64,000 nt of DNA from Paraspadella gotoi (taxonomy: Eukaryota > Animalia > Chaetognatha). The stretch's first letter is position 1. Every line of letters begins with the position of its first letter. Under the pieces are notes generated by a model. That model was not told the DNA's origin and made no database searches. It was given only the letters and a program-made list of their open reading frames with translations. Both the position numbers and the translations under genes were made by a program. Below, one piece after another: positions 8,121 through 62,940 of this stretch. The DNA is taken from positions 17,300,502-17,364,501 of the forward strand of contig CM119268.1 in the NCBI GenBank assembly GCA_051294375.1, written 5' to 3'.

Positions 8121-8272
8121 CATCAGCGCAGCCTCGGTGGCGTAAGAGTAAGAATTCTCTCTTCTCCCCAAGCTGTTTTGGGTTCGCGCCCCATTGGTGT
8201 AAGCGGGACGGGACGTCTGACCCACCTGTAGAGGCGGACTACTAATAATTAACAGGCGGTAATGTAGTCCTA
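8121..8272 (+). mobile_element. Diverged tRNA-derived SINE-like relative of the twister-bearing repeat
   Basis: A-box-like TGGCGTAAGAGT and B-box-like GGTTCGCGCCC, followed by 8201-8230, which matches 40988-41017 at 24/30 nt. Confidence 0.45.
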
Positions 8273-9828: not shown

Positions 9829-11800
9829 ATGTCCGTGGAAAGACCTATCGAAAACGTTTGTCGGCCACCGGCATCGCCGAGTCTGTCGGCCGGGATGCCG
9901 ACGAAGCCTTTGCCGGAATCGATCCTGCGTCGGAAGACTCGTCCAGAGAATCTCGAGGAATTGGTGGAGGTCAGTTTCAGTTATTTATTGGGGGAGTTAC
10001 AGATTTTTATATATTTTTTTAATGTTTTGTGATGAGAAAATTTTTTTTCTATCCTATATACATGACCATAACCACTTTACTATGGCAACGAGGGGACAGG
10101 GTTGAGACTTGGGGGGGGTAGGCTTCTCCCGACAGCCGGCTTTGTACCTGCAGTGACCATCCCGTATCACCGGCGTGATTATGATATTAGCATCACACTT
10201 AACTTTACCGTGAGGGATTTGAACCTGAACTCACGGTTTTTAAACGAGTACTTCGCATTCTACGCTATTGAGACGAGATAAGCTGGGAGTCGAATTAAGA
10301 ATTCGCCACAGTACCAATTAAATCATTACCCCCCCCCTACAATAACAGGGCCTGCACGAACTCTTCAGCGATGAAATGGTGGACATCGATTTGGTCACGT
10401 CATGGATGGAATCTTATCCTGGACTCAAATCCGATTGGAAGAAATTCGAAAAAGTCGACAAGTACAGGTTAATTAAAAGTGGAAAAGATAAGGGATGGTG
10501 TGGGAAAATAATAAAATTAAGTAAAAATACAAATAGTCAGCGTTAACAGGTTTGCAACACAAATATGATAATGGAGCGATATTTTGAAAAAAAAAGAAAA
10601 AGAAAAACGCCCAGCTTAATTTTTTTTTTGGTAATATTCCGACAGACAGGAATATTCCATTCAGACAGACAGGTTTGCGGAATGAAACTCTTTTAGAAAA
10701 TTGAGGCGACTTAACTCGGCCCTGTGTCTTCTCCTGTCTCGTGCCAATCGGTCACCACGGTCAAATCAGCCTCCTTCGGCCTTGACCTCAGATTGACAAA
10801 AGATTGACAAAAGGGGCCGAGGAGACCGCGATGTCAAATCGCTTCTGGATGTCGTATTGTGAGAAAAGGAAAGGAGCTCATCTCAGATCCTTCAGCTTTT
10901 TGTTGTTAGTTTTTGTTCGACTTGTGTTTTAATTGAAAGCCACCTCTTTCAGGTACACTCGGAACCTCGTCGACGCTGGAAACGGGAAGTTCAATTTGAT
11001 TCTGATGTCGTGGGGTGAGGGAATGGGCAGCGGCATTCACGACCACGCAGACTCTCACTGTTTCATGAAGATTTTGGACGGGGAACTCAAGGTGATTTAT
11101 GGAATGGGTCGCGTGAAAGGATAGGGTCAGTTTGAAAGTGAAATGAGCGATTAGCTTGAGAGAATCTTTATGTGGGCCAGTGATTAGTACGTATAAGTTC
11201 TCTCGCCTGTCACTTACATATTCATGACATATATTTGACACATTCCATATAACAGAAAAAAACCCGTCCTCTTTTCAGGAAACCCTGTATGATTGGCCCG
11301 ACGAAACAAAGGACGAAGAAGTCCCTGTAGAAGCAGACGAAACGAAACTTCGAAAAAAAGGGACGACGATTTACGAATTTCCAAAAGTGGCCTACATCAA
11401 CGATTCCATCGGTCAGGAAATGGGAGGGGTGTGGTTGACGTTGTTGTTGTTGTTGTCGTTATTTTATGCTTTTTGCTGTCGTCGCCGTTGGTTGTTCTTG
11501 TATCTTGTTGTAGTTGGTTTTTATTGTGGTCAGTTGTTGTATAAACTTCAACTTCACCTCACCTTCAACGCCCCGACGACAACCCTTCCCGCCTTCCCAG
11601 GTCTCCACCGCGTGGAGAACAACAGCGACGCCTCCCGCGCTGTCTCCCTCCACGTCTACTCTCCGCCCTTCGACACGTGTCGCTGTTTCGACGAGAGAAG
11701 CGGAAAGGCCAACTCCATCAGCATCACCTTCTACAGCAAATTCGGGAAGCGGACGCACGGGGAAGTTCGGTCCGCCGTCAGGCAGAGGGAGAACAATTGA
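9829..11800 (+). CDS. CDO1: Cysteine dioxygenase type 1 (cupin, 3-His non-heme iron enzyme), multi-exon gene
   Basis: Exons with GT-AG boundaries and consistent phases: 9829-9969, 10349-10467, 10953-11091, 11279-11411, and 11601-11764 or read-through to TGA at 11800. An alternative last exon is 12084-12125 (VCHRVLATLGRCF*). The joined protein has [44 protein letters not shown]...[14 protein letters not shown]...[11 protein letters not shown]...FYSKFGKRT. This includes the CDO HDH...H iron ligands, the cross-link Cys and Tyr, and the S-H-Y triad. Confidence 0.95.
10190..10274 (-). mobile_element. tRNA-derived SINE head remnant in CDO intron 1
   Basis: On the minus strand, A-box-like TAGCGTAGAATG (10267-10256) and B-box GGTTCAAATCC (10225-10215) at tRNA-like spacing. 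No full cloverleaf. Confidence 0.45.
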
Positions 11801-19065: not shown

Positions 19066-19187
19066 TATGGTGGACTAAAATCAACCAACCGTTCATCAGC
19101 GGCCATTGGTGCCCGAGGAGAGTCATTCGCCTTTCAACCCAAAGGTCCGAGGTTCTAGCCCTGTGGCCGCCGAGCAGTTAAGAGGGA
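19066..19187 (+). mobile_element. Third, 3'-truncated copy of the same repeat with the best-preserved tRNA-like head
   Basis: GCGGCCA(19099-19105)...TGGCCGC(19164-19170) forms a 7-bp acceptor-like stem spanning exactly 72 nt, with B-box-like GGTTCTAGCC. Similarity ends after AGCAGTTAAGAGGGA. Confidence 0.8.
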
Positions 19188-19624
19188 ATTGGAACTCCGA
19201 TATGGGCAGTCGGACGTTGAACCTTTTCTCACGGACGCCACGAGTGCCAACATAATATTAAATGAATAAATAACTTAATTTCCTTCATTCTCATATTCAT
19301 TTCTTCCGAGAAAAACGGCGAGCGAGAGAGAGTATTATATGGGAATGATAACCATTTTTGCTTAATTCATCCACAATTCAAAATGACTTTTTTAGTATTT
19401 CAAATAAATAAGTGATATATGTATAGTTTGGCTCTCCGGGTAGTAGGGGTCCACACTTGACTTATTTTTCAAGATTTTAAATCAATTAACGCGAACATTT
19501 GTCTTAAAAATACTAATGCAACGATGCAAAATAAAGAATTTTTTTTATAATAATCACCACAATTATCGCTGAATCACCACTGAATTATCAACGAATTTTC
19601 ACTGGTAGAAAATCTGAATAATAA

Positions 19625-39353: not shown

Positions 39354-42300
39354 TCAGTTTTTAATCTCAGACTGAGGTCTAAGCAACGGCGTCCTTTCCT
39401 CGTACGTCGTCTCTCTCACCGTCGACAATTTCGATCGTTCGTTTTCGGCGTCAACCGTCACAGACGCCACCTTTCGTTTCCAGTAGACGATTCTGCAGGG
39501 GGCGCGTCTCGTCTCTTCCGCTAGACGTCGCATGTCCGTCAGCGATTGCGGCAATGGTCGACCCTGTAATGGTTTTGAATATTACTAAGGATTTTCGGTA
39601 ATTAAAAAATTCCCACCTTAGTCTCCGGAACGAAGATCACAATCGCAGCCCCGAGCAAATTGGCACAGGCCAGCGTCGTCTCCACCGCCAGGGGCGCCCT
39701 CGTCTGAAAGTAGGACAAGTAGCTGGCGGCGATGGCGGAGAAACGCCCGAAAAGCATCGCGATGAGGAAAGCACGGGCCCGAATGAGAGTAGGGAACGCC
39801 TCCTGTAGCGAAGAAGAGGGGAAGGGGAAGTTTCTGTTATGGTGGACTATAATCCACCAACCGTTCATCAGTGGCCATTGGTGCCGGAGGCAAGTCATTC
39901 GCCTCCCAACCCGAAGGTTCGGGGTTCTTTCCCGCTGGTCGCCTAGCCTGTAACACGGTGTTACAGCCTGATCCGAAGCTCAGGGACTGCTTATATTGAA
40001 CGGTTCTGTCGCTAACACATAACAATCATTACTGTCTCTTCACTGCAAATCATTTTGTAGGTCCTGGCTTTTACTAAATAACTAATCATCAAATCCTCAT
40101 AAAATAAACATCCTTTGTTGATGGTCTGCAGTTCTTTTCTGAATGGTTTCCTGCTTCACATTTTCAAATGGATTTTCTCTTTGAAATACCAATAAATAGT
40201 ATTGTAACTATTATATTGCTATGTACTATGGAGTTCATCCCTCTTCCTAATGTCCTCGCCTGAATCCAAAGTCCATAAGGCCGACTCCCGATGGCACCGA
40301 GGATGTTGATGGAGATGTTGATGATTCGGCGGAAAAGCGGCGCTACTTTGTCGACGTCGCCGACGACGCCGCGAACGACGGCAACGCTCAGAAATCCGGC
40401 GCCGGCGATCGAGCTGCCGATAATCATCGCCGGACGCCGGTAGAGGAAGCGGCAGGCGAGGAAGCCGATCGCCTGAGAAGGCAAGAGGCTGAGTTGCAGC
40501 AGAGAAAAGTTGAGGAAACGATTCCCGGCCAAAGTTCCGTAAGTGAAGTTGAGGCCGATGTCGTTGAGGTTGGTTTTGGCCCAAGTCAGTCCGCCGACGA
40601 TCAAGCTGACGACGACGAGACGAGATCTCATCGCCTGGCGAAAATTCTCCTCGTTTTCGTTGTTGTCGTCGTCGTTGTCGTTGTTTCTGTTGTCTCCGCC
40701 ATCCGACTCATCTTCCAAAACCCTGGTAAAAATTAATTAGCCTAAACATTGGGTATTTATAACAAGTTTTGAAATGAAAAAAAGGTTTTTTTCATTGATT
40801 TATTATCAGCTAAAAACGATTAGCAATGTATTTTGTCGATTTGACATATGTTTTTGACCAATAAAATCTAACATTGTATCATTGTATGGTGGACTAAAAT
40901 CCACCAATCGTTCATCAGCGGCCATTGGTGCCGGAGGTAAGTCAACCCAAAGGTCCGGGGTTCTAGCCCGGTGGTCGCCTAGCAGTTAAGAGGGACGGGG
41001 CGCTTAACCCGCCTGTAACATGGTGTTACAGCCTGATCCGAAGCTCAGGAACTGCTTATATTGAACGGTTCTGTCACTAACACATAACAATAATTACTGT
41101 CTCTTCAATTGTAACATTTTTCATAATTAACATGATAATTTTTTGAATAAAATAGATCTACGCACGATGCACAAACCTCGACATTACATTCTCGTCGATA
41201 GTCATCCTTCGAGATTTCGCCACGCGTCCCAGCACCTTTGCCGCCTCCGCTGCGCGACCCTTTTTGATCAACCAGGGCGGAGTCTCGGGGACAATCCACG
41301 TCGCTGGGATCACGAGGAAGTTGATGCCGTAGAGAATGAGCAGCAGGGTGCGCCAGCTGGAGAGGGCGTAGCTGGCGGTGCGGGGTGGGGAAACAAGTAC
41401 AATTGGATCGATGATTACTGATCATTGATCAAAGACGGCAGACGAAGACAATTATATTAAGCTAAGGTCAAAGTATAAACTTACGACATCCAAGGAATAG
41501 TCGCGCCGGCCCAAATCCACGTTGGATCCAAAACCATCGGAATAATTCGATGCTTCGACGAAAAAGTTTCACACTGAGTGAAAAGTGGGAATCGCGATTA
41601 ATTCGATTTTATGATTAAAAATACTCAAATGAGGTTTATATCGACTTAAAAAGACTTACTCATTCTTAGTACTCTAGGTCGCGTTATTTGAAATGTTATT
41701 AATAAAGCTTACTCGGTAAGTTTCCAAAGAATAATAGCCGACGTAGCCGATACCAAGAAAAAACCTGCAAATAACATAAAAATGAACAATATGTCAAAAA
41801 ATTGATTTTTAAGAATATTTATTTAATTGATTAAATAACTACATAATTATATAAATACTTGAATAATTTACGGAATAAATTAGAATTCATAGTAACCTAA
41901 ACAATACAAAAAGACGAACCGAACGGCGATGTAGAGATAGACGTGATCGATCCACGCCACCTGCATTCCAGCCGCGAAACAAATCGCCGCCGACGCCATG
42001 ACGACTCGACGACGCCCGAACTTGTCGCTCAAATATCCGCAGAAGAGGCAGGCCGACAAGTTGCCGACATAGAAGAAGGTTTCTGTCATGTTAAGAAGGT
42101 ATTCTTGGTCGCAAACGAGGCCCCACTCGGACGCCATGGAATGCTCCGTCGGCTCCTCGAAACTCCAGTTGGACCCGGGACAACCGATGGAGCAAATGTC
42201 CACTTTGCTCAGGTTGACGAGACGTTCGGGGAAAGGAGAGTTCGCATCTTGATCGACTTGATCGTCGTCGTCGGAGGAGTTGAAATAAACGCTGAGATCG

Positions 42301-42458
42301 CTGCACCAGAATCGAGGCTGGTACGTTGCCATGGAGTTGCCGAAGTAGAGAAAGCAAGAACAGGCGTTGGCCAGCATGTGGACGATCCAGATGCCCATGG
42401 GAAACCAACCGCAGACACCCAAGGAGATGTAGAGAGCGTCGAGCTCCTTGGCACCCAT
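39354..42458 (-). CDS. SLC22 / organic cation transporter-like MFS transporter, 7 coding exons
   Basis: Exons on the minus strand: 42458-41920, 41764-41713, 41573-41485, 41371-41177, 40722-40260, 39802-39617, 39563-39354, with phases that join in frame. SLC22 motifs present: large Cys-containing first loop, SMASEWGLVCD, GYLSDKFGRRRV, RFFLG, VPETPPWLIKKGR, QEAFPTLIRARA, VPETKGRPLPQS. Confidence 0.93.
39838..40042 (+). mobile_element. Second copy of the same repeat (intron 5 of the SLC22 gene), internally deleted across the ribozyme cleavage site
   Basis: Aligns to the 40885 copy but jumps from ..GTCGCCTAGC directly to CTGTAAC.., a deletion at a GC microhomology. Keeps P3, P4 and the 3' tail. 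Confidence 0.85.
40885..41107 (+). mobile_element. tRNA-head / twister-like SINE-type repeat, copy with complete ribozyme part (intron 4 of the SLC22 gene, antisense to it)
   Basis: Shares TATGGTGGACTAAAATCCACC..GTTCATCAGCGGCCATTGGTGCC..GGTTCTAGCCC.. with the 19066 and 39838 copies, and the 3' end ..TGAACGGTTCTGTC..ACTGTCTCTTCA with the 39838 copy. Has a short deletion in the anticodon region. Confidence 0.85.
40981..41056 (+). ncRNA. Candidate twister self-cleaving ribozyme, P5-type circular permutation
   Basis: Ordered elements: P5 AGCAGTT(40981-87)/AACTGCT(41050-56); GA(40994-95) then CGG(40996-98); U^AA(41005-07); CCC; GC(41011-12); P3 CTGTAAC/GTTACAG; P4 CCTGA/TCAGG enclosing loop T-CCG-AA-GC. 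T1 pseudoknot is CCG/CGG and T2 is GC/GC. P2 needs a bulge and P1 is only ~2 bp. Confidence 0.6.
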
Positions 42459-44465: not shown

Positions 44466-45020
44466 TGGTGCGAGGATTCCGTGCGATGGCTCAGGCGAGA
44501 GTGAGTCGAGGATGGATTGGGTTTCGAAGAGAGTGGCGGCGTTGAAGCAAGTTATGGGTGACATTATTGAAATGAAAATGTGGGTGACGGTATTGAAAAG
44601 TATGTCACATTTTTAGTGGATGACATTTACTCAAAAACTTGTTCAATTTTTGAAAAATCAGAATGTTTCAGAATCTATATTAAATATTTTTTTCAGTAGC
44701 TTCGTTCTATTTTTTTCGTAGGTCAAATTATTTAAAAGTTAGAGGCAAAAAAATATCACTACCTCAAGTTAAAAANNNNNNNNNNTTCTTTCTATTTTTT
44801 TCGTAGGTCAAATTATTTAAAAGTTACAGGCAAAAAAATATCACTACCTCAAGTTAAAAATGAAAAAAAAACCAACTAATTTAGCGATGACGCGAAAATA
44901 TAAATCAGAGCCACAGAGAGAGATACGGACGGAATGTTTTTCAACATTACGTTCGTATGTTGTCTTTGGGTGTAAATTGGGGAGAAGAGATTTTAGGGAG
45001 ATATTAGGAGAGAGGAAGAG

Positions 45021-53931
<8,911 letters not shown>

Positions 53932-60903: not shown

Positions 60904-61534
60904 TAAGGCGTAGTAAAATTCTTAAGTTTAACTTTAATTAAAATTCTAAAGGTAAAGAACGAACAACATTATACTCATGAACATTTATGTAATAAAAAAA
61001 TTTATAATAAATTTTACAATTTACGCAGTAGGCCTAAATGAATAATAGTTAAAATTTCAAAACAGTTTTTTCTAAGATTTTTTTGCAGATTTGGATTCGT
61101 CATAAAAAGTTGATAAAAAGAAATACAACTCTTTTTGAAAAATTCCTTCATTAAGTGGGTCAAAAATTAGAAAAAGCTATATTTTAAACTGAAAATCAAC
61201 TTTTTATATATTAAAATTAATTTAAATTTTAATTTTAATTTTAATTTAAATACAGTTTTTTAAATTTTTAACCTACTTAATGAAAGAATTTTTTAAAATG
61301 ATTTATATTTTCTTTTATCAACTTTTAACGAGGAATTCAAATCTGCAATAAAAATTAAGAAAAGCCTATTTTGAAATTTTTTGATTTTATAAGGATAGTA
61401 CTATATATAAATATAGCCTACTGCGAAAATTAAAAAACATAAAATTAATTTTTTTTACAAATTAATGTTCACTGATGGTATGTTGTTCATAATTGACTTT
61501 TAGAATTTTTGTATGTAACTTTCACTACGCCTTA
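60904..61534. mobile_element. Fold-back MITE (non-autonomous DNA transposon, hAT-like ends) with 8-bp TSD
   Basis: Ends TAAGGCGTAGT.../...ACTACGCCTTA. The two halves are imperfect reverse complements around ~61220. Flanked by the exact direct repeat TTGACCAG (60896-60903 and 61535-61542). A partial second copy starts at 63556, inside the inverted duplication. Confidence 0.8.
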
Positions 61535-61776
61535 TTGACCAGTCAATGACCACGACCCTTTTTTTTAACATTGACTCCAACCTGTACCACCAAATTGACC
61601 CTGACCACTTACCCACTCTCCCTCCCCACCTGACCTTACTTAATCCTCCCCCCATCAACTCGCGACTCCAGTCTCTAACAAGGTCGAATCGCCGAACTAA
61701 AAACTCGCGTTCGACCAAGACGAGTTATATCGCCTTACACGTGACCCTGAACGCAAAAGACCCCGGATTATGAGTG

Positions 61777-61858
<82 letters not shown>

Positions 61859-62060
61859 TCAAACCAGTCCTTGCTCTTAGAGAAACCTTTCAAATGATAG
61901 ACAGAGAGCGAGAAAGTGAAAGCAACCGAGAAAGAAGGAGAGAGAGCGAGATATCGTCTCTTCAACAATCGTCCTTTTGAATTGGAGCAGCGAAGTTGCA
62001 AGAGGTGACGCCTTTCTTTTATTCCGTAGTGACGGGAGTCTCATTTCACTTGCTTCTTCT

Positions 62061-62129
<69 letters not shown>

Positions 62130-62940
62130 CCTCCCTTTCAACCTCTTTTCCAATTATCGACCACGAATACCAGAAAAGGACTTTTTATCCTCGTTTTACT
62201 TTCCGAAGCGATTGACGATTATTCGAAGAACACACCGAACGAGAAAGCTAATTTATTTATTATTATATTTGTTTATTTATCAATTATTGCACTATTTAAA
62301 ACTGTTATTATTTTATAATTAAGAATAAAAAAATTAACTACTACTATCTTTATAAAAACAAACAAAACATCATAACGAAGATATTCAACTTTACCAAATC
62401 CTCTAAACCCCTTTTTTTTCAANNNNNNNNNNNNNNNNNNNNNNNNNGTTGTCGCCTCGGAACAGTTGGCGGCCGCAAGAAGGGTGACGTTGGTTATCAC
62501 AGAATTGAGAGTCGAAGTGGCGGTGGTGGCGTAGGCGTCGGCGAAGTTAAGCCAATCACGCAGAGGATGCCGCCTGAGGGGGGAGGGGGGGTGAGGGGTG
62601 GAGTGGGGGGCGGTGAGTGGGAGGGGGGCGTGGTGCGAGTTACGAGCGATGGTATTTGAAAAAAAAGGGGTTTAAGGATTTGGTAAAGTTGAATATCTTC
62701 GTTATGATGTTTTGTTTGTTTTATATAAGAATAGTAGTAGTTAATTTTTTATTCTTAATTATAAAAATAATAACAGTTTTAAATAGTGCAATAATTGATA
62801 AATAAACAAATATAATAATAAATAAATTAGCTTCTCGTTCGGTGTGTTTTCGAATAATCGTCAATCGCTTCGGAAAGTAAAACGAGGATAAAAAGTCCTT
62901 TTCTGGTATTCGTGGTCGATAATTGGAAAAGAGTTGAAGG

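Follow-up and report, generated by a model that had tools for sequence, protein, structure and literature searches.

A candidate solo long terminal repeat with a tRNA-derived segment and a twister ribozyme motif in Paraspadella gotoi

What kind of mobile element joins a tRNA-like RNA polymerase III (Pol III) segment to a twister-like ribozyme, and how might such an element define the ends of its RNA? The question is raised by a short repeat at 40885-41107, forward strand, of a 64,000-nucleotide stretch of the chaetognath Paraspadella gotoi (assembly GCA_051294375.1, contig CM119268.1, forward-strand positions 17,300,502 to 17,364,501). This stretch is called the window, and all positions are counted within it. 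An initial annotation proposed a short interspersed nuclear element (SINE) carrying a ribozyme. The proposal of a non-autonomous mobile element with a tRNA-derived, Pol III-type segment and a P5-permuted twister motif is supported, and assignment to the SINEs is not favored. Tentatively, the unit is the solo long terminal repeat (LTR) of a small non-autonomous LTR retrotransposon of the Helenus/TRIMp3 type. Pol III would transcribe this element, and the twister would cut the resulting RNA at a predicted site between U41005 and A41006. The unit is likely to work like a retrozyme. Its ends, leader, and target-site duplication agree less well with a SINE than with a solo LTR left by a Helenus-type mini-retrotransposon that Pol III transcribes. 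What appears to be new is a twister motif joined to a tRNA-derived segment in a putative LTR unit with fixed ends; the kinds of component are already known.

The window contains three related copies, and their annotated starts at 19066, 39838, and 40885 were recovered by blastn (E values 1e-56, 2e-34, and 3e-31; pairwise identities 181/194, 102/111, and 93/110). Copies A and B have both ends in common and are identical at 181 of 194 positions. Copy A (40885-41107, forward strand) is a whole unit with TA...CA ends, and is missing 11 nucleotides of the tRNA-like part that are present in most family copies. Copy B (39838-40042, forward strand) has a whole tRNA-like part and a 29-nucleotide deletion of the twister core. 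Copy C (19066-19187, forward strand) matches only the first half of the unit, the leader and the tRNA-like part, and is followed by unrelated sequence. The 3' tail (41071-41107, forward strand), which the initial annotation gave to all copies, is found in two of the three; it is unstructured, has CA at its end, and may be a U5-like end. The unit measures 223-234 bp. Beyond copy C, about 60 GC-rich bases at 19188-19250 are unrelated to the twister half, representing either a truncation or the body of another subfamily. A weak match (25/31) to the 5' part of the twister (40987-41017) lies at 8190-8270 and is possibly a decayed relative; that segment has no L4 motif and no sense-strand support from the covariance model R1 described below.

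The wider family was studied through assembled contigs from public sequencing runs of the same organism (nine runs are listed for it; four were used per comparison, six different ones in all). The 271 bases around copy A matched 11953, 2930, 2103, and 976 contigs in four runs, most of them 90-99% alike. Summed contig depth on the element exceeds that of the single-copy flanks by four orders of magnitude. This sum is not a copy number; if the density of 3 copies per 64 kb is extended to the 103-137 million letters of the contigs, simple arithmetic gives ~5000-6000 copies. Among the 24 loose ends listed of 677, left ends pile at 40885 (121, 89, 52, and 28 contigs) and right ends at 41107 (159, 102, 71, and 31 contigs) in all four runs. 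The sequences beyond these two positions are unrelated (agreement 0.41-0.47), the consensus of the flanks adjoining them is xTAx in most cases, and no poly-A, microsatellite, or short-repeat tail of the kind found on SINE2 elements is present at the 3' end. Copy A is bracketed by ATTG at 40881-40884 and 41108-41111. The putative 4-bp target-site duplication, a feature that the initial annotation suggested looking for, is exact at copy A, and at copy B the flanks CTGT and CTGC agree at three of four positions. A 6-bp duplication with a TG start also fits copy A, but was rejected because the contig ends pile at 40885 and not at 40887. In the DNA runs X5, X7, and X8, no joint skipping copy A or copy B (an empty site) was present among the 15 of 43 joints listed, so there is no direct proof of the duplication length.

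The TA...CA termini are of the LTR type, and the tRNA-like part begins 33 bp within the unit, behind a conserved leader, rather than at the 5' end as the head of a SINE2 element does. A SINE, which normally has a tail, cannot retain a 33-bp stretch that precedes the point where Pol III starts. An LTR accounts for a leader upstream of the Pol III start, for the missing tail, and for an internal ribozyme, because the ends of an LTR are set by priming sites and not by the transcript. A tRNA-headed SINE with an internal twister, mobilized by a long interspersed nuclear element (LINE) through target-primed reverse transcription, would account for the tRNA-like segment with its A- and B-box-like motifs, the length of 223-234 bp, the very high copy number, and the intronic location. 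In addition, helix P3 of the motif is similar to its counterpart in the Perere-3 (RTE) twisters (PMC8501958), and the 5' parts of RTE elements are known to become incorporated into SINEs. Such a SINE is nevertheless quite unlikely, given that the 3' end is sharp and has no tail, that the 5' end is also sharp but precedes the tRNA part by 33 bp, and that the duplication is 4 bp. Moreover, cleavage by a ribozyme located downstream of a SINE head would detach that head (PMC5786205), and the RTE twisters covered in PMC8501958 are P1-type and lie at the 5' end beside the duplication.

Fixed ends would also suit a non-autonomous DNA-type element, either Crypton-like or a miniature inverted-repeat transposable element, that carries the RNA modules by chance, and the unit starts with TATGG, as do most oomycete CryptonS elements in the available descriptions. 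This is a most improbable origin. The unit has no terminal inverted repeat, and TATGG stands at the 5' end only, whereas CryptonS elements are recognized by TATGG at both termini. The animal Cryptons described lack terminal repeats, and the RNA-level modules point to an RNA intermediate.

One contig links two units head to tail over four letters, CTAG. Such a junction, together with the layout of a promoter followed by a ribozyme, recalls the Schistosoma Pol III-hammerhead repeats. In a non-LTR retrozyme of that kind, tandem arrays would give multimers that are cut to monomers and moved by a Penelope-like or LINE enzyme. We consider this very unlikely here. The copies occur as monomers dispersed in the genome, and their fixed ends bear no relation to the cleavage site. 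The end-to-start joint is 1 of the 15 joints listed of 50, in a single contig at single-copy depth, and the duplications given for animal non-LTR retrozymes are longer than 4 bp.

The putative Pol III promoter lies in the tRNA-derived segment at 40918-40978 (forward strand), with an A-box-like motif at 40926-40937 and a B-box-like motif at 40959-40969. A tRNA-derived part with boxes A and B, placed behind a leader inside the unit, is the arrangement of Helenus/TRIMp3 elements, although box A departs from TRGCY. The 5' hairpin inside the 33-bp leader (40887-40906, forward strand; predicted pairing 0.98), the 9-bp enclosing stem (40906-40914 with 41062-41070, forward strand; 0.93), and the acceptor-like stem (40918-40924 with 40972-40978) reported in the initial annotation are all in the sequence, with predicted pairing of 0.93-1.0. 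The T-arm of copy A has a predicted pairing of 0.0. The annotated 72-nucleotide tRNA-like module is whole (72-73 nucleotides) in copy B (39871-39943) and copy C (19099-19171), and is incomplete in copy A, without its 11 nucleotides. ARAGORN at default settings reports 0 tRNAs, and the Rfam tRNA model, which the annotation had recommended, gives no match. At lowered thresholds, copy C is scored as a pseudo tRNA-Glu (2/1000 shuffles as good) and copy B as a Gly/Trp-like pseudo-tRNA (18/1000), both beyond chance; copy A gives an unconvincing pseudo-tRNA (135/1000) that is not beyond chance. The segment, which is Glu/Gly-like in copies other than A, is most plausibly the relic of a Pol III promoter and would direct Pol III transcription. 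No T run follows the tRNA-like part in this unit, and copy A is without any TTT, as are 5.9% of shuffles.

Behind the tRNA-like part lies the P5-permuted twister-like motif (40981-41056, forward strand), which was read against the consensus given by Rfam and in two papers. It is composed of P5 (40981-40987 with 41050-41056; 7 bp), P2 (40991-40993 with 41008-41010; two pairs and a C.A), P3 (41013-41031; 7 bp), and P4 (41032-41049; 5 bp), P3 and P5 being optional in the type. The general base G40994 and the predicted cleavage site U41005/A41006 (41005-41006, forward strand) are present, as are A41006, the general acid, and the conserved A41007. The initial annotation had thus picked the correct twister cleavage dinucleotide. 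Both pseudoknots can form: T1 (40995-40998 with 41038-41041) has three Watson-Crick pairs and an A.A, and T2 (41011-41012 with 41043-41044) has two pairs. L4 reads U-CCG-A-A-GC, and a six-nucleotide linker (40999-41004) stands in place of P1. T1 departs from the Rfam consensus on both sides with its pairing preserved. The helices that had been annotated are in the sequence, and among the three window copies only copy A has the whole motif. Copy B lacks 29 nucleotides equivalent to 40984-41012, which include both catalytic residues, and the match of copy C ends at the equivalent of 40995.

In a large assay of natural P1-type twisters, imperfections in P1, P2, and most of P4 were tolerated, and the sensitive parts were the catalytic residues, L1, and the pseudoknots (PMC11662667). 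The assay-sensitive parts are the ones intact in copy A. Across the family, 40990-41012 and 41037-41044 are nearly invariant, with only two CpG-site changes reaching at least 3%. The family variants at 40975, 40978, and 40981 (acceptor-like stem and base of P5) all stay paired through G.U, which, at three of three, is weak evidence. Folding of the whole unit gives a z-score of -2.25, with 2/200 shuffles as good.

A descriptor of the motif, written after the element had been seen, has one match in the window and none in 20000 local shuffles; with P3 required, it matches 1 of 1500 shuffled windows. Phage loci fetched by pattern provided an independent check: 314 loci yielded 20 distinct cores after a helix filter. 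Seven of these cores were sent to Rfam and four pass the Twister-P5 threshold. All four carry the same T1 variant, and two have a 3-nucleotide P2. A covariance model, R1, was built on five phage twisters, and on the window it places 40990-41048 first of seven matches (18.6 bits, E 0.027) and the copy B remnant second. The motif is very probably of twister ancestry, and it would probably show measurable self-cleavage. The phage search also brought out, in large phage contigs, a group of P5-permuted twisters that have P3, a helix that the Rfam P5 consensus lacks. The head motif of the element had 0 matches in viral contigs, and a single match to the P4-L4 motif in metagenome contigs fell within a bacterial reading frame and was dismissed as chance.

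Several observations weigh against the LTR-retrozyme reading. On the window, Rfam returns 16 matches at E<=1, mostly microsatellite hits to microRNA models and none in the element; on 40860-41130, it returns none at E<=10, neither twister nor tRNA, and the RF02684 threshold is not reached. The loose descriptor alone matches in 15 of 300 shuffled windows. R1 finds 28 of 38 phage loci at 21-104 bits, and the element's 18.6 bits are below all 28 listed. Stem P1 is missing, and no more than one G.U pair could form in its linker. L4 is closed by A41036-U41045, Watson-Crick but not the G-C that a twister review calls essentially invariant. G-C closes L4 in 19 of the 20 structured phage cores from the 314 loci, and of 41 phage loci fetched for A-U closure, none passed the helix filter. 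A competing 6-bp hairpin (40993-41013, forward strand) would block T1, P2, and T2. It lies 7.7 kcal/mol below the twister-compatible fold, pseudoknots not counted; the same gap is 1.6-5.7 in nine of ten phage examples and 12.9 in the tenth. This hairpin is also predicted to form first during transcription, with a predicted pairing of 0.99. When copies are compared, the family contigs show no double-sided compensatory change. [quoted passage not shown] The duplication is exact in one of the two complete copies, and the missing T4 run in copy A is not significant, since 56% of shuffles are alike in this respect.

An alternative is that the unit is the solo LTR of a Helenus-type element whose twister-like domain is inactive or vestigial. 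Its RNA would then be a plain multibranch fold, and the element would transpose as an ordinary terminal-repeat retrotransposon in miniature (TRIM). All of the LTR-type evidence speaks for this as well, as do A-U for G-C, the lost P1, the strongly predicted competing hairpin, and the Rfam blank on the element. The loose ends likewise suggest sibling variants with other middles. We nonetheless regard a vestigial domain as unlikely. All catalytic and pseudoknot positions are intact and nearly invariant, and a double change that preserves T1 pairing is hard to obtain without function. P1, though conserved, is reported to be dispensable for twister cleavage. The initial annotation had named the lack of a twister covariance-model match, or of compensatory changes among copies, as grounds for refutation. 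This refutation holds in part, there being no Rfam twister match and no visible double-sided change, and yet the independent model R1 and the residue check favor a twister.

Loose ends before 41059 and behind 39928 indicate that sibling variants seem to have a common head or tail and other middles. One of them, which occurs in runs X5, X7, and X8, lacks the twister. In it, a B-box-like motif and a T4 run immediately precede the common tail, so that it resembles an ordinary Helenus LTR. A 1262-nucleotide contig of run X5, at depth 295 (single-copy contigs about 10-15), covers the 3' half of the unit (40971-41108) and extends 1.1 kb further. This contig may represent the internal part of a complete element; alternatively, it may be some larger repeat with a copy in it.

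If the solo-LTR reading with an active twister is correct, a two-LTR master element would exist elsewhere in the genome. Pol III would start near 40918 in the 5' LTR and then read through, because no T run follows the tRNA part. In the 3' LTR, the twister would fix the RNA end, replacing the T-run terminator of ordinary Helenus LTRs. Folding suggests that it might fire mainly there: only the 3' LTR would contribute its leader and enclosing stem to the transcript, and P5 is predicted to pair at 0.97 when the leader is present but at 0.51 or 0.03 in an RNA starting at the tRNA part. If the ribozymes of both LTRs cut, a host ligase would close the monomer into a circle, the course taken by plant retrozymes. 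Cleavage by the 3' ribozyme alone would leave a linear RNA with a terminal repeat of about 100 nucleotides. Reverse transcription primed by a tRNA, and then integration, would be carried out by the Gypsy-type reverse transcriptase and integrase of a partner. Solo units would arise through LTR-LTR recombination or from short reverse transcripts. Run X9, guessed to be RNA, is spliced and contains the element, though contigs cannot show level, strand, or RNA ends. Near 41000-41029, the depth in X9 relative to DNA falls to 0.087-0.095, most bins being at 0.11-0.16, but it falls as far at 40920-40939, and the drop was therefore not used.

Copies A and B lie antisense in two introns on the reverse strand of an MFS/SLC22-like transporter gene. 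Copy A is in a GT-AG intron (40723-41176) and copy B in a GC-AG intron (39803-40259), and one X9 contig has both introns spliced out. Pfam assigns Sugar_tr to the first exon, at 41922-42458, and a homolog search with one transporter exon found none. Within the GC-donor intron, run X8 has a 28-bp deletion at 40166. A purine tract preceding copy B was considered as a PPT and rejected, being the pyrimidine tract of the host intron. Elsewhere in the window, there are two long inverted duplications, 45014-47923 with 53937-51084 (87% over 3 kb) and 61087-62422 with 64000-62656 (95% over 1.4 kb). A cysteine dioxygenase exon is found at 11228-11800; its closest relatives are 250-amino-acid proteins at 73-79%, and its best named matches, at 65-67%, are from molluscs and vertebrates. 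An atlas look-up on the host lineage gave animal clusters only, in keeping with an animal.

In the literature searched, with subscription journals, Repbase, and Dfam outside the search, there is no report of a twister in an LTR, TRIM, or SINE, nor of ribozymes in Helenus. The triple combination of tRNA promoter, LTR, and twister was likewise not found there; the family may already sit in Repbase or Dfam with its ribozyme unnoted, and the supplements of PMC8501958 and PMC11662667 may list twisters of this organism. Further literature was used for comparison (PMC5408937, PMC7761336, PMC3212892, and bioRxiv 10.64898/2026.07.22.740005). A twister variant with A-U closure, no P1, and P3 present is missed by the Rfam models. 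If the solo-LTR reading is true, the thousands of copies would offer a system for asking by what means a retroelement transcribed by Pol III generates the ends required for reverse transcription.

The closest known system is Helenus, the TRIMs with tRNA-derived LTRs (TRIMp3; PMC10886601). Like this unit, Helenus LTRs have a tRNA-like part behind a leader inside a unit of 120-320 bp, a GGTTC box B, and a CA end. In animals, the Helenus duplication is 4 bp, and solo units are numerous. Some of the LTRs have TA...CA ends, with TA starts in at least five wasp Helenus LTRs of the supplement. In most of the Helenus LTRs examined there, a T run follows directly after the tRNA part. The present unit differs in its box A, which reads TGGTG and not TRGCY, in having a twister motif and no T run after the tRNA part, and in that the two-LTR form was not seen here. 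Five sequence motifs of the element gave no match to the published Helenus consensuses. PMC10886601 never uses the word twister, and its main text names hammerheads in a reference only.

Two entries of the same supplement, Helenus-2_SyJa and Helenus-2_SyUm of Synergus wasps, are full elements with PBS, PPT, and a 4-bp duplication. Just 3' of the tRNA part, both LTRs contain what reads by eye as a complete type III hammerhead, with a GUC site, a 7-bp helix I, CUGAUGA, helix II, GAAA, helix III, and a 12-nucleotide loop-loop complementarity, which the main text does not remark upon. That this hammerhead was read only by eye is a point against the LTR-retrozyme reading. As in the present unit, a ribozyme motif comes directly after the tRNA part in the LTR, with no T4 run between. 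The wasp elements differ in their type III hammerhead, TG...CA ends, and known PBS and PPT, and no sequence similarity is seen by eye. They would be animal LTR retrozymes in named genomes. A broader proposal, to which we give less credence than to the solo-LTR reading itself, is that animal tRNA-promoter LTRs captured self-cleaving ribozymes at least twice, a twister here and a hammerhead in Synergus Helenus. The ribozyme would replace the T-run terminator in making the RNA end, and a multibranch fold closed by the leader would act as a switch, activating the twister in the 3' LTR alone. With a hammerhead lying unnoted in wasp LTRs that are already published, this general claim can be tested at once on named genomes.

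Plant LTR retrozymes (PMC4918200) have a ribozyme inside an LTR, a 4-bp duplication, and solo LTRs, and they are non-coding and Gypsy-dependent, all as proposed for the present unit. Their ribozyme is a hammerhead, their LTRs are 300-400 bp, the available passages mention no tRNA-derived promoter, and circular RNA has been shown for them, where for the present unit it is a prediction. In the SINE-like Pol III-hammerhead repeats of Schistosoma and in animal non-LTR retrozymes (PMC6765202, PMC7229834), too, a ribozyme comes after a promoter of the Pol III type within a short repeat. They differ in their tandem arrays, type I hammerhead, lack of LTR-type ends, and longer duplications. The initial annotation considered a tRNA module and a P5-permuted twister nested in one multibranch fold unfamiliar; for the pairing of a tRNA-type promoter with a ribozyme, the Schistosoma repeats are a precedent (PMC6765202). 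Twister-P5 (RF02684) and the Perere-3/RTE twisters (PMC8501958) have the same order P2'-GAnGG-P1-UAA-P2-GC-P3-P4-L4-P4', the catalytic G and A, T1, and T2, and the P3 sequence of Perere-3 is similar to that of the unit. In contrast to both, A-U closes L4 here, P1 is a six-nucleotide linker, and P2 has two Watson-Crick pairs and a C.A. The Perere-3/RTE twisters stand at the LINE 5' end, and this motif stands mid-element behind a tRNA-like part.

LTR retrozymes have so far come from plants and carry hammerheads, the twisters of mobile elements lie at the 5' end of RTE-type LINEs, and Helenus has been described without ribozymes. Each pairing has its precedent: promoter and hammerhead in Schistosoma, ribozyme in an LTR in plants, tRNA in an LTR in Helenus, and twister in RTE LINEs. 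A twister in a tRNA-promoter LTR, if borne out, would join those three lines and would represent a second natural role for the twister class.

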